Positions 36,901 through 48,228 of a stretch of DNA of 64,000 nucleotides are shown here, piece by piece. The number at the start of each line of letters is the position of its first letter. The stretch's first letter is position 1. The position numbers are program-made. Source of the DNA: a plasmid; assembly GCF_057098645.1 (NCBI RefSeq), contig NZ_JBXSPU010000002.1. The stretch is one strand, 5' to 3'.

Positions 36901-39900
36901 AATATTTCAGCCAGTATTTCAGCCTTAAACTGTTGCTTATCTCGCTGGTATATACTGCGGTGTCCGTTTTTCTGTGGACACGTCTGCGTCCTGTATATAT
37001 TCCTTTGCCATGGCGGAGAATTGTCTCTTTCCTGCTGCTTTATGCTCTGCTTCTGCATCCGGTTGTTCTGAAATCGTTAATCAGACAGGAGCCGCTGAAT
37101 GATACTCTAGGCAAACTGGCATCCCGAATGGAGCCTGCTGCCCCCTGGCAGTTTGTATCCAGTTATTATCAGTACCATCAGCAACTGAATGCACTGACAA
37201 CCTTCCTGAATGAAAATAGCGCACTGCCACCACTGGGTAATCTCAGGGATGAATCAGGGGAGAGACCACGCACACTGGTCCTGGTGATTGGTGAGTCGAC
37301 ACAGCGCGAACGCATGAGCTTATACGGGTATCTACGTGAAACGACGCCGGAGCTGGATGCACTGCGTAAAACCGATCCGGGTCTTACTGTGTTTAATAAT
37401 GTGGTGGCATCGCGTCCGTACACCATTGAAGCATTGCAACAGGCCCTTACTTTCGCCAACGAAAAGAATCCTGATCTGTATCTGACGCAGCCGTCGCTGA
37501 TGAACATGATGAAGCAGGCAGGCTATAAAACATTCTGGATTACCAACCAGCAGACAATCACAGCCCGTAACACCATGCTCACTGTATTTTCGCGCCAGAC
37601 GGACAGGCAGTACTACATGAATCAGCAGCGAACACAAAGTGCGCGTGAATATGACACTAACGTGCTGAAGCCGTTCCGGGAAGTGCTGAATGACCCTGCA
37701 CCAAAGAAACTGATCATCGTGCATCTGCTGGGTACGCACATTAAGTATAAATACCGTTATCCGGAAGGTCAGGGGCGGTTTGATGGCATTACAGGGCATA
37801 TTCCCACTGGATTAAATGCGAAAGAGCTGGAAGTGTATAACGATTACGATAATGCCAATCTGTTTAACGATCATGTGGTGGCCAGTCTGATAAAGGACTT
37901 CAGAGCAACTGCGCCGGACGGCTTTCTGCTTTATTTTTCAGATCATGGTGAAGAAGTATATGATACTCCGCCATATAAAACGCAGGGACGGAATGAAGAT
38001 AACCCCACACGTCCCATGTACACTGTTCCGTTCCTGCTGTGGACCTCGGAAAAGTGGCATGCTGCACATCCGCGAGATTTTTCGCAGTATGTTGACCGCA
38101 AATACAGTCTGGCTGAACTGATCCACACCTGGTCAGATTTGGCGGGACTGACATACGATGGTTACGATCCGACCCGTTCTCTGGTGAATCCGCAATTCAG
38201 GGAAACCCCCCGCTGGATTGGAAATCCGTATAAAAAGAATGGGCTCACTGATTTCGACACTCTTCCGTATGGTGAGCCATAGTATTTTCTTATCTTCGGT
38301 TCCGTTCTGAAGGCAGGAGGATGTGTTTTCCTCTGCTGTCCGGTGGCCTCCAGGGATGGTACCACCTTCTGCTGTACTCTGTTATCATAATGAGATAAGC
38401 AGGCAGATACCGGTAAATATGAAAAATATCAGAACTGAGTTTATTCCCCGCTTTAACCTTACATTATGCTTCCCCCGTTACTGGATGACGTGGACAGGTA
38501 TCGGTATTATCTGTGTGTTTGCAATGGTCCCCCCCGCACTGAGAGATCCATTGTTGGGAAAATTGGGCATGCTGGTTGGGCGTCTGGGGAAAAGCGCACA
38601 TCAACGGGCCTTGATTAATTTATCGCTTTGTTTTCCGGAGTACAGTGATAAAGAAAAGGAGAATATCGTTGATGCCATGTTTGCAACAGCCTCCATGGCC
38701 GTTGTGCTTATGGCTGAATTAGCACTGTCCGGGCCTGATAAAATTTCGCATCGTATACGCTGGAATGGTCTGGAGATTGTGGAGAAGATGGCACAGAACA
38801 ATGAAAAGGTCATTTTTCTTGTGCCACATGCCTGGGGAGTGGATATTCCCGCAATGCTGATGGCTGCGTCGGGCAGAAAAATGGCAGCGATGTTTCATAA
38901 CCAGAGAAATCCGGTGGTGGATTATGTCTGGAACAGTGTTCGTCGTCGTTTCGGAGGAAAACTGCACGCACGTAATGACGGTATTGCCTCCTTTGTCCGC
39001 TCAGTCCGGCAGGGATACTGGGGATATTATCTTCCTGATCAGGATCATGGCCCGGAATTCAGTGAGTTTGCAGATTTTTTTGCGACGTATAAAGCAACTT
39101 TACCGGTTATCGGACGGCTCAGCAGGATCAGTGGTGCACGGATAATACCGCTTTTCCCTGTTTATGACGGAAAGACCCATCATCTGACTATTCATGTCAG
39201 CCCGCCACTTGCTATACGACAGAAGAGTGATGCTCATATTGCGCGACAGATAAACGAAGTGGTTGAAAATTTCGTTCGTCCACATCCTGAGCAGTATACG
39301 TGGATCCTCAAGTTGCTGAAAACGCGTAAAGAAGGGGAAGAGGATCCTTACTGAGGCAGGTTTTTCAGGATAATGAGCTTACCCAGCAATAGTGGACACA
39401 CGCTAAGTGAGTAAACTCTCAGTCAGAGGTGGCTCATATGACAAAAGTAAGCGTACAGCCTGAACCGTCTGGTCAGAATCTGACGAATTAGACAAAGTGG
39501 TGTCCACCAAATAAGTAGTGGGAACCAAAGTATCAGATATGCAGAAAAATGTGACTCCCGGCAGGCGAAAAGGCTGCCCTAATTATCCTCCCGAATTTAA
39601 ACAGCAGCTCGTTGCTGCCTCCTGTGAACCCGGGATATCCATCTCAAAACTTGCTCTTGAAAATGGCATTAACGCCAATCTGTTGTTCAAATGGCGACAA
39701 CAATGGCGCGAGGGAAAGCTGCTATTACCTTCTTCAGAGAGCCCCCAGCTACTTCCTGTGACTCTCGATGCAGCTGCCGAACAGCCAGAATCGCTCTGAA
39801 CCGCCCCGGGTTTCCTGGAGAGTATTTTATCTGTGAACTCAGGCTGCCAGATCATTATTTCCGATGGAAGCATAATAAGCTTTTTCTGCTTCTGCCGGAG

Positions 39901-45900: not shown

Positions 45901-48228
45901 TTTCCTTAGCGTGTGTTATCGCAGAAATGCCCACGGAACCCCTATGAGCGCAAAAGGTTGCTGCTACGATAATGCCTGCGTGGAAAGCTTCTTTCATTCG
46001 CTGAAAGTGGAATGTATCCATGGAGAACACTTTATCAGCCGGGAAATAATGCGGGCAACGGTATTTAATTATATCGAATGTGATTACAATCGGTGGCGGC
46101 GGCACAGTTGGTGTGGCGGCCTCAGTCCGGAACAATTTGAAAACAAGAACCTCGCTTAGGCCTGTGTCCATATTACGTGGGTAGGATCACAGAGGCAGTT
46201 CCAGTGTTAACATGAACCGCCGTATGCGGAGCCGCATGTACGGTGGTGTGATAGAACCACGGCAGCCTGGCGGCTGCAAATTGAAAACCGCCCCGGTTCG
46301 TCCTGTTGTTGCCGCACGCCCCGCAGAATATGTATGCTCTGAGGACCTGTTTTATTAAGGACTCATCCCCTTATGTTGACCCGCAAAAGTATCGATACAG
46401 TTCTGCTCTCTGTTGGTGCTGAGAAGCTCTCACAACGAGAATGGGACTGGATGAAAATGCTCAAACCCATGGACCCACCACCTGCGATGGTGACGACCTC
46501 CATCCTGAAGCGCCGTGGCGATACAGCAGCCCTTACCCTGCTACAGGATACCGGGGTTTAATCCATCCTCATGTTGTCCGGTTTTACTCCCCGCCCTCTG
46601 AAACGTCTGTTCACAGCCAACCAGTGCTGGACGTCCTTCCTGGATGCGGGCGGTCTGCGCGATATCGAGGTTGAAGCCGTCACCAAAATGCTGGCCTGCG
46701 GCACACGGATACTGGGTGTAAAAGAGTTCGGGTGTGATAACCCGGACTGTCAGCACGTAAAGTACCTGACCAACTCATGCGGCAGCCGTGCCTGCCCGTC
46801 CTGCGGAAAGAAGGCCACAGACCTGTGGACAGCAACACAGCTGAATCGTCTTCCTGACTGCGACTGGGTACATCTGGTCTTCACCCTGCCGGACACGCTG
46901 TGGCCGGTGTTCGAAAGCAACCGCTGGCTGCTGAATGACGTGTGCCGTCTGGCGGTGGAGAATCTGCTGTTAGCGCCAGTGATATAAGACGGTAATTCAC
47001 CATTTGGATTGTCCGCTCCACCCAACATGTTGTTTCCTTAAGGTTCTCACACCAAAAAGGACATCAACATGCTGAGCAGAGAGGACTTTTACATGATAAA
47101 GCAAATGCGCCAGCAGGGCGCGTACATTGTCGATATTGCGACTCAGATTGGTTGCTCTGAACGAACGGTCAGACGTTACCTCAAATACCCTGAACCGCCA
47201 GCCAGAAAAACCCGCCACAAAATGGTTAAGCTGAAACCGTTTATGGATTACATCGACATGCGCCTGGCAGAGAATGTCTGGAATAGCGAGGTTATCTTCG
47301 CGGAGATTAAGGCAATGGGCTATACGGGCGGACGTTCCATGCTGCGTTACTACATCCAGCCCAAACGTAAAATGCGTCCGTCAAAAAGAACAGTTCGCTT
47401 CGAAACTCAGCCCGGATACCAGCTCCAGCACGACTGGGGCGAAGTTGAGGTGGAAGTTGCCGGGCAACGGTGCAAAGTTAACTTTGCGGTTAATACGCTG
47501 GGGTTCTCCCGCCGCTTTCATGTCTTCGCTGCCCCAAAACAGGATGCTGAGCATACCTACGAATCACTGGTTCGCGCCTTCCGCTACTTCGGTGGTTGTG
47601 TGAAAACGGTGCTGGTTGATAACCAGAAGGCTGCGGTGCTGAAGAATAACAACGGGAAAGTCGTGTTCAACTCCGGATTCCTGTTGCTGGCTGACCACTA
47701 TAACTTCCTGCCACGGGCATGCCGTCCACGCAGGGCCAGAACAAAAGGTAAGGTTGAGCGGATGGTGAAATACCTCAAGGAGAACTTCTTCGTCCGGTAC
47801 CGCAGGTTCGACAGCTTCACTCATGTCAATCAACAACTGGAGCAATGGATAGCCGATGTGGCTGACAAACGGGAGCTTCGTCAGTTCAAAGAAACGCCGG
47901 AACAGCGCTTCGCGCTGGAGCAGGAACATCTGCAGCCGTTACCCGATACGGACTTCGATACCAGTTACTTCGACATCCGCCATGTGTCCTGGGACAGCTA
48001 TATCGAGGTTGGTGGTAATCGTTACAGCGTTCCCGAAGCGCTGTGTGGTCAGCCGGTATCGATACGAATATCGCTGGATGACGAGTTGCGGATCTACAGT
48101 AATGAGAAACTGGTGGCCTCACATCGCCTCTGTTCGGCATCGTCTGGCTGGCAGACAGTGCCGGAGCATCACGCCCCGCTCTGGCAGCAGGTCAGTCAGG
48201 TGGAACATCGGCCACTGAGTACCTATGA

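Follow-up and report, generated by a model that had tools for sequence, protein, structure and literature searches.

The window analysed here is a stretch of 64,000 nucleotides of a plasmid contig, and between positions 39374 and 46189 it carries parts of five kinds of mobile element. These features, the short flank beyond them and the intact IS3 that served as the reference copy for both IS3 fragments are as follows.

39374–39446, plus strand: IS3-like left end (IS3L), with the left inverted repeat and the first orfA codons (IS3 positions 1–74)
39447–39796, plus strand: left terminus of an IS66-family element with a truncated tnpA (39539–39796; matches to NF047595 and HTH_Tnp_1)
39797–41106, minus strand: complete IS629-type element of the IS3 family, 1,310 bp with both inverted repeats (orfA 40726–41052, orfB 39839–40726)
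41107–42154, plus strand: internal IS91-family fragment, cut on its left by IS629 and on its right by the Tn3-family element
42155–45942, plus strand: complete Tn3-family transposon, 3,788 bp, with inverted repeats, resolvase and transposase (IRL 42155–42192; presumed res region 42193–42338; tnpR 42339–42962; tnpA 42943–45909; IRR 45905–45942)
45943–46189, plus strand: right end of an IS3 variant (IS3R), with the last 71 orfB codons and the right inverted repeat
46190–46253, no strand assigned: 64-bp original flank of the IS3R copy, which accompanies IS3R in pKKo009_1
50078–51335, minus strand: intact resident IS3, 1,258 bp

The elements and their order agree with the initial annotation, whose coordinates were good to within 1 bp. 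A BLAST comparison of the intact IS3 with the window returned exactly two further matches, both on the plus strand: 39374–39446 aligned to resident IS3 positions 1–74 (90.5% identity) and 45944–46189 to positions 1013–1258 (93.1% identity). Both fragments carry IS3 terminal inverted repeats and are collinear with the IS3 ends; as had been proposed, they represent its two termini and point the same way, and IS3 positions 75 to about 1011 (about 937 bp) are missing between them. The product of IS3R is the C-terminus of the OrfB DDE transposase (rve; positions 305–369 of the 369-position model NF033516, E = 7e-24), and it also matches Pfam rve_2 and rve_3. Judged by its 7–10% divergence from both, the resident IS3 is a third, independent copy and the source of neither fragment. 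The IS3 of pCAU16175_2 (H101), considered as a parent variant for IS3R, proved to be a homologue of the resident IS3.

The IS66-family terminus begins at 39447 with GTAAGCG, a terminal motif of that family, directly after IS3 position 74. Its tnpA product matches NF047595 (76.7 bits, cut-off 74) and NF038385. The gene is cut after codon 86 of 117 by IS629, the first bases of which supply the stop codon, and a comparison locus (L006) holds an uninterrupted 354-bp tnpA that is collinear with the window up to 39796. No right end of the IS66-family element was found in the fetched loci. The adjoining IS629-type element, of which the window contains four copies, has imperfect terminal repeats (TGAACCGCCCCGGG...) and an orfA/orfB pair with a frameshift. 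Homologous copies are entered in RefSeq as an IS3-family transposase with a programmed frameshift; the name IS629 is presumed from the length and ends.

The IS91-family transposase fragment, of the HUH/Y2 rolling-circle type with a zinc-binding domain at its N-terminus, matches NF033538 (242.7 bits, cut-off 125; model positions 2–297 of 356) as well as Pfam Zn_Tnp_IS91 and Y2_Tnp. Seven plasmids carry its junction with IS629 at 100% identity and document the state that preceded the transposon. pE105-1 and pF2_18C_FIB have a complete IS91 followed by yacBA and IncFII repA, a context with no IS3 around it, and the window fragment is 100% identical to pE105-1 over 1,048 bp.

The Tn3-family transposon is bounded by 38-bp terminal inverted repeats (36 of 38 positions identical, GGGGTTCCGTGGG...CGCTAAG), and its IRR ends at 45942, abutting IS3R. 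It encodes a 988-aa TnpA (NF033527, 916.9 bits, cut-off 500; Pfam DDE_Tnp_Tn3 and DUF4158) and a 207-aa serine resolvase (Pfam Resolvase and HTH_7); the 146-bp interval between IRL and tnpR is the expected location of res, and we regard it as a putative res. For a named counterpart, NCBIfam and RefSeq give 'Tn3 family' only, and literature searches by inverted-repeat string or keywords returned nothing specific to this element.

Comparison with the plasmids of strain Z1323HEC0399 revealed that the backbone changes exactly at the transposon. Positions 16715–40008 match pZ1323HEC0399-3, a pO103-like plasmid, at 99.0–99.9% identity, while 42154–46970 and 50629–64000 match pZ1323HEC0399-2 at 100% and 99.9%, respectively. 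By these alignments, 16715–42154 belongs to a pO103-like enterohaemorrhagic E. coli (EHEC) virulence plasmid and 42155–64000 to a different plasmid type, that of pZ1323HEC0399-2. A third backbone, IncHI2 (1–14076), is attached further left through an IS21-family element. This bears out the suggestion that plasmid modules meet here, at a recombination hotspot.

The two IS3 remnants follow these backbones. The lpxM-IS3L-IS66 junction is present in 155 of 5,426 complete E. coli genomes, at least 19 of the matches listed also having IS629 at that site, and IS3R is not adjacent to it in the plasmids examined. In pO103, the IS629 beside lpxM-IS3L-IS66 is followed by cmi-ehx and not by IS3R; in plasmids of the pO103 type, IS3L is a fixed remnant downstream of lpxM. 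The transposon/IS3R junction was found in only four of the 5,426 genomes, on pZ1323HEC0399-2-type plasmids and on pKKo009_1, and the same search never returned IS3R without the adjoining transposon. Homology to other IS91-bearing loci begins only at 46254, beyond the 64-bp IS3R flank. In strain Z1323HEC0399 the two remnants lie on separate plasmids, IS3L on pZ1323HEC0399-3 and IS3R on pZ1323HEC0399-2.

The initial annotation had read the two fragments as one IS3 split in place by nested insertions of the IS66-family, IS629, IS91-family and Tn3-family elements, with accompanying deletions; taken to its end, this means that deletions removed the 937 bp and all target duplications. The reading accounts for two opposite, non-overlapping ends (1–74 and 1012–1258) in the same orientation, each 7–10% diverged from the resident IS3, and transposon-adjacent deletions do occur in the lineage. 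It is contradicted by the residence of the fragments on two backbones, and on two plasmids in Z1323HEC0399, by the many genomes that carry IS3L with no IS3R nearby in the plasmids examined, and by the restriction of IS3R to pZ1323HEC0399-2-type plasmids and pKKo009_1. Moreover, IS3R is 99.2% identical to a full-length IS3 variant in p510016_80, whereas IS3L matches the left end of that variant at only 92% (69/75), a comparison that rests on 73 bp and in which mosaic IS3 variants are possible. The intervening IS91 belongs to the yacBA-repFII context without IS3, and the outer 3-bp flanks differ (TAA left of IS3L, CAG right of IS3R). Chimeric probes for an intact IS3 at either site (the lpxM flank with the IS3 interior, and the IS3 interior with IS3R and its flank) had no match at 80% probe coverage or more in any of the 5,426 genomes, and the comparison with related genomes gave no intermediate state. 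We consequently abandon the single split IS3 as highly improbable; the 6.7-kb spacing of the two remnants and their shared orientation are most likely coincidental. A common, ancient origin of both retains a small residual probability. The mismatch of the outer flanks is weak on its own, as the intact resident IS3 likewise has no target duplication.

The absence of target duplications, which had been attributed to deletions accompanying the insertions, was confirmed for IS629 (flanks CTC and GGT) and for the transposon (ATAAG and TATGA), and the attribution is partly right. For IS629, exchange between homologous copies accounts for the missing duplications better than deletion does. The four copies in the window are block-wise SNP mosaics, a patchwork and no simple two-parent crossover; one and the same IS629/IS91 junction has a different left context in each of three plasmids. 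When the flanks of the four copies were paired anew under hypothetical inversions, no pairing restored 3–4-bp duplications. At the transposon, an adjacent deletion is seen directly in a sister plasmid: pZ1323HEC0422-2 lacks 2,028 bp of pZ1323HEC0399-2 through a clean deletion that abuts IRL, and the two are otherwise 100% identical.

Further comparisons describe how the transposon behaves. An identical element lies inside an IS629 of pZ1323HEC0399-3 with a perfect 5-bp target duplication (TATTA), which indicates that the transposon is active. Single strains carry it in many replicons, at least four in Z1323HEC0399 and Z1323HEC0422, at 99.9–100% identity, and both candidate parent plasmid types have copies 100% identical to that of the window. 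The joint between transposon and IS3R is constant, while five different left flanks, counting that of the window, were found opposite it (IS91, an MFS transporter gene, a ferric reductase gene, and sites upstream of yacA and upstream of copG/relE), none of them with a duplication. Flank patterns of this kind are classical signatures of intramolecular and intermolecular replicative transposition, and the lack of a duplication in the window is as expected for a cointegrate or an adjacent-deletion product.

Based on these comparisons, we consider it probable (about 0.75) that two independent piles of mobile elements on two plasmid backbones were joined by the small, active Tn3-family transposon. 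In the left pile, an old IS3 downstream of lpxM would have been struck at position 74/75 by an IS66-family element, which was itself later struck by IS629, and homologous exchange among the many IS629 copies would then have brought IS91 beside IS629. In the right pile, the Tn3-family element would have inserted at TATGA into orfB of a different IS3 variant, after which the part of IS3 left of the transposon would have been lost. Finally, the left end of the transposon would have been joined replicatively to ATAAG in the IS91 transposase gene of pO103-type DNA, either between molecules, forming a cointegrate, or within an already fused molecule, as an adjacent deletion. By either route the transposon ends up with one flank from each backbone, without a target duplication. 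What we infer is the order of the old insertions and the choice between these two routes, and Tn3-family target immunity would disfavour intramolecular events. A cointegrate predicts a second transposon copy, but only one is visible in the window; with a resolvase gene that looks intact, resolution of a simple cointegrate would also be expected.

At the joint between IS91 and the transposon, the window has five Gs (GGATAAGGGGGTTCCGTGGG) where native IS91 has four (GGATAAGGGGTTCCGTATGG), which fits the target ATAAG followed by an intact IRL and, with it, true transposition. A microhomology join at the shared decamer predicts four Gs where the window has five, and was rejected on that count, a homopolymer sequencing error being possible. 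The argument from four versus five Gs is one of homopolymer length, which sequencing errors can alter. The IS91/transposon junction is absent from the 5,426 E. coli genomes and from 72,556 plasmids. Neither reciprocal junction, the transposon IRR joined to the IS91 remainder (ATAAGGGGTTCCGTATGG) or IS3 up to TATGA joined to the transposon IRL, occurs in the 5,426 genomes, so that the proposed original transposon insertions are undocumented.

Two other routes to the same arrangement were weighed against replicative transposition. RecA-dependent recombination between two transposon copies, one in IS91 with an ATAAG duplication and the other adjacent to IS3R, could have fused the replicons, with the second copy subsequently lost or inverted. 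Substrate for it is ample, given the near-identical copies in at least four replicons of the two strains and the perfect identity of the window copy to both candidate parent types, and its product would be indistinguishable from a transposition cointegrate. Yet no simple IS91::transposon plasmid was found, the junction and its reciprocal being absent from the 5,426 genomes and the junction also from the 72,556 plasmids; the route needs one step more than direct replicative transposition, and an intact resolvase would resolve this fusion as it would a cointegrate. We regard it as unlikely. The molecule might instead be an assembly artefact in which co-resident plasmids were mis-joined across common repeats (the 3.8-kb transposon, IS629 and the IS21-family element). 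That the transposon flanks come from two plasmid types that are separate replicons in a closely related strain, that a third backbone is attached through the IS21-family element, and that the junction is unique among the genomes and plasmids searched would all agree with a mis-join. However, a mis-join still needs a real IS91::transposon left junction, seen nowhere else in the databases, and so at least that junction would be a real event; long reads also routinely span repeats of 1.3–3.8 kb, and real fusion plasmids of such a kind are common. An artefact is accordingly quite improbable, and joining by replicative transposition is the reading that we retain.

The element resembles the products of Tn3, gamma-delta/Tn1000 and Tn21-type transposons in its 38-bp inverted repeats with a GGGG start and a CGCTAAG end, its DDE transposase, and its serine resolvase with an upstream intergenic region. 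The 5-bp duplication at a simple insertion, the constant flank opposed to variable ones and the clean adjacent deletion in the sister plasmid are further likenesses. It differs from them in being minimal, without passenger genes, and in that no second cointegrate copy is visible in the window and the resolvase looks intact. The surroundings are those of the IS 'junkyards' of EHEC and enteropathogenic (EPEC) E. coli plasmids such as pO157 and pO103, where IS629 and IS remnants separate functional modules, several IS629 copies lack duplications, and modules are inverted or shuffled between copies. In particular, the order lpxM (msbB2), IS3 remnant, IS66 tnpA remnant and IS629 is 100% identical over 651 bp in pO103 (O103:H2 strain 12009) and in many other STEC plasmids. 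Beyond IS629, the window continues with IS91, the Tn3-family element and the second backbone where pO103 continues with cmi-ehx; its ecf-lpxM segment is inverted relative to ehx, and an IncHI2 segment is also attached. A true nested disruption of IS3 would likewise have genuine IS3 termini on both fragments, but its break points would be contiguous and its target duplicated. In the window, 937 bp of IS3 are absent, the outer flanks disagree, and the fragments lie on different backbones and probably come from different IS3 variants.

The locus is therefore an ordinary mobile-element junction, formed by textbook mechanisms: IS629-mediated inversion, together with cointegration or adjacent deletion by a Tn3-family element. 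In IS-rich plasmids of this kind, two remnants of the same IS type that point the same way give no evidence that one element was split, and flank exchange as well as deletion can account for absent target duplications. In epidemiological work on plasmids, the transposon shows precisely where the seam lies between an EHEC pO103-type virulence backbone and a second virulence-plasmid backbone, and the molecule, if real, is a fusion plasmid that unites modules usually carried apart. A more specific proposal, which we put forward as possible but doubtful, is that the window represents an unresolved three-way fusion of IncHI2, pO103-type and pZ1323HEC0399-2-type plasmids in which the transposon made the decisive joint, guided to IS91 by a 10-nt copy of its inverted-repeat tip. 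If this were true, IS91-family elements would be preferred docking sites for the Tn3-family transposon, which would repeatedly drive fusion and adjacent deletion among the virulence plasmids of E. coli. Such a copy (GGGGTTCCGT) does lie in the native IS91 gene, 1 bp from the insertion point.

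We compared the intact IS3 of the window (50078-51335) with the remainder of the window and found two further matches, both on the plus strand, that correspond to opposite ends of the element and leave about 937 bp of IS3 sequence missing between them. The features of the region are:

39374-39446, plus strand: IS3-like left end (IS3 positions 1-74; 90.5% identical to the intact IS3)
from 39447: IS66-family terminus, beginning GTAAGCG
39539-39796: IS66-family accessory gene tnpA, matching IS66 TnpA models
39797-41106: complete IS629-type element, 1,310 bp, one of four copies in the window
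41107-42154: internal IS91-family fragment (model positions 2-297 of 356)
42155-45942: complete Tn3-family element, 3,788 bp, with 38-bp inverted repeats (36/38 identical)
45944-46189, plus strand: IS3 right end (IS3 positions 1013-1258; 93.1% identical to the intact IS3)
50078-51335, reverse strand: intact resident IS3, 1,258 bp

Comparison with a closer IS3 variant moves the start of the right remnant to 45943. The inventory and coordinates of the initial annotation were thereby confirmed essentially to the base, and every component carries the tested defining features of its own family (IS3, IS66, IS629/IS3 family, IS91 and Tn3 family). Of the 117 codons of the IS66-family tnpA, only the first 86 remain, and the Tn3-family element (hereafter, the transposon) encodes a serine resolvase and a 988-aa transposase. 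As reported initially, target duplications are lacking at both IS629 (flanks CTC and GGT) and the transposon (ATAAG and TATGA). The resident IS3 also lacks a 3-bp target duplication (TAG and AAC, in IS orientation); it is intact in the window (region 49829-51335) and in pCAU16175_2, and truncated in pZ1323HEC0399-2, at the equivalent of 50629, by the end of a neighbouring IS91.

The initial annotation interpreted the region as one IS3 split by nested insertions. The data instead indicate that the two IS3 remnants are unrelated debris from two backbones. Strain Z1323HEC0399 has two large plasmids, and we compared the window to each. One, pZ1323HEC0399-3, is a pO103-type EHEC plasmid with katP, ehxCABD, cmi and the ecf-cptA-lpxM operon, and is collinear with window 16715-40008 at 99.0-99.9% identity. 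The other, pZ1323HEC0399-2, is a different F-type plasmid with a large autotransporter, toxB and per-like genes, and matches window 42154-46970 at 100% and 50629-64000 at 99.9%. The transposon is the exact point of the backbone switch, and so the proposal that this stretch is a recombination hotspot and module boundary holds. In that strain, the left remnant lies on pZ1323HEC0399-3, downstream of lpxM, while the right remnant lies on pZ1323HEC0399-2, joined to a copy of the same transposon.

This separation of the remnants into distinct lineages and plasmids argues against one IS3 split in place, as do three further observations. Across 5,426 E. coli genomes, neither an intact IS3 nor any intermediate state was found at either remnant site. 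The flanks outside the remnants are unlike (TAA versus CAG). The variant affinities are discordant, the right remnant being 99.2% identical to the p510016_80 variant and the left remnant only 92% identical to the left end of that variant, although a mosaic variant might give the same result over so short a left remnant.

The structure's left half is known from pO103 and similar published plasmids. The series of junctions from lpxM through the IS3 left end to the IS66 terminus occurs in 155 of the 5,426 complete E. coli genomes, and at least 19 listed records, including pO103 of O103:H2 strain 12009, are 100% identical over the full 651-bp probe, IS629 insertion included. In pO103, cmi and then ehxDBAC follow the lpxM-side IS629, and neither IS91 nor IS3 sequence comes after it. 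In plasmid 2013C-3277 unnamed3, the IS66 tnpA is uninterrupted and followed by further nested IS66-family debris, and the remainder of IS3 is absent from that locus.

The initial annotation also held that deletions accompanied the insertions. At IS629, homologous exchange among its copies accounts best for the missing duplications, with no need for deletion at insertion. Three lines of evidence carry this reading. The IS629-IS91 junction (41106/41107) is present at 100% identity in seven other plasmids, but on different IS629 copies: in pE105-1 on the copy adjoining katP, and in pF2_18C_FIB on the one at the far side of the ecf segment. In both of these plasmids the IS91 is complete and followed by yacBA and the IncFII repA, and pE105-1 is 100% identical to the window's IS91 fragment over 1,048 bp. 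Compared with pO103, the IS629-flanked ecf-cptA-lpxM segment (33127-39796) has the opposite orientation with respect to ehx. Finally, the four window copies (17905-19214, 22046-23355, 31817-33126 and 39797-41106; 96.6-98.6% mutual identity), all without a target duplication, are block-wise SNP mosaics whose blocks recur in copies from pO103, pF2_18C_FIB and pE105-1, a pattern that suggests recombination or gene conversion.

Beside the transposon, the claim of deletion has support from a sister plasmid. The transposon's junction with the IS3 right remnant was found in only 4 of the 5,426 genomes (Z1323HEC0399, Z1323HEC0422, CAU16175 and KKo009), and the remnant with its downstream flank was never found there without the transposon. 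TATGA, the right flank, belongs to IS3 itself, consistent with original insertion of the transposon into orfB. The right junction is constant, but no two left flanks agree: in the window it is the IS91 gene, and elsewhere a gene for an MFS transporter, a gene for a ferric reductase, or the region upstream of yacA or of copG/relE. Around the transposon, pZ1323HEC0399-2 shares 100% identity with its sister plasmid pZ1323HEC0422-2 (each from a human isolate from Korea), apart from 2,028 bp cleanly deleted from the latter. This deletion abuts the left inverted repeat (positions 3974-6001 of pZ1323HEC0399-2), takes out an MFS-transporter gene along with the 3′ end of a gene resembling ferric reductase, and is the classical signature of Tn3-family intramolecular replicative transposition. 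The transposon is also active in simple insertion; in pZ1323HEC0399-3 it lies inside IS629 with a perfect TATTA duplication.

Databases contain roughly 800-1,400 copies of the transposon, which has no specific name in RefSeq. Sequences 99.9-100% identical to it are carried by many small mobilizable plasmids of Col type, by large F-type plasmids and by some chromosomes, often on several replicons within one strain, with pigs and humans as the main sources.

Juxtaposition of the two remnants most likely occurred by replicative transposition of the transposon's left end into IS91. Between molecules, this event would yield a cointegrate fusing the two plasmids; within an already fused molecule, it would yield an adjacent deletion. 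The native IS91 gene reads GGCGGATAAGGGGTTCCGTATGG at this site and contains GGGGTTCCGT, the same 10 nt with which the inverted repeat of the transposon begins, a decamer found elsewhere in the window only at both transposon ends and in another IS91-family fragment (copy near 62465). The insertion point lies 1 bp from it (window 42145-42164), and the joint reads GGCGGATAAG|GGGGTTCCGTGGG, with five Gs. Five Gs (42154-42158) fit insertion at the target ATAAG, 1 bp away from the repeat-like decamer. Crossover by microhomology at the decamer would leave four and was rejected, with the caveat that sequencing error can alter the length of such a homopolymer.

Neither the 5,426 E. coli genomes nor 72,556 PLSDB plasmids contained the IS91-transposon junction, and the genomes also lacked both predicted reciprocal junctions. 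The same product would arise by recombination between two copies of the transposon, and mis-assembly across the repeated transposon is a less likely source of the arrangement. With one copy in the window, reciprocal junctions missing from the databases and an intact resolvase gene, which would be expected to keep a cointegrate from persisting, these sub-mechanisms are indistinguishable. Known processes commonly yield such an architecture, namely cointegration or adjacent deletion by Tn3-family elements together with IS-mediated inversion. Only two points are mildly unusual: insertion beside a native copy of the transposon's own inverted-repeat tip, and a molecule that appears to combine three plasmid backbones.

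The third backbone, window 1-14,076, is 99-100% identical to the backbone of 180-250-kb IncHI2-type plasmids and carries trhI, VWA-domain and DUF3150 genes. Between it and the EHEC part lies an IS21-family element:

14178-15173, minus strand: istB
14950-16593, minus strand: istA

The EHEC-plasmid part borders this element (window 1-16714 region) with a truncated F-type traH.

In the right-hand part of the window, a 1,327-aa autotransporter gene (minus strand, within 52088-57780) precedes a gene for a group II intron reverse transcriptase/maturase (56557-57780, minus strand; TIGR04416 at 377 bits), and both are common to pZ1323HEC0399-2 and pCAU16175_2 at 99.9-100%. A second IS91-family element (46254-49828; 62-aa ORF at 46373-46561, transposase from 46571) is broken by a 2.1-kb IS21-family element at about 46968-49097 (istA 47069-48241, istB 48238-49038), flanked by direct repeats of up to 9 bp (ATCTGCTGT). 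The equivalent IS91 in pZ1323HEC0399-2 is uninterrupted.
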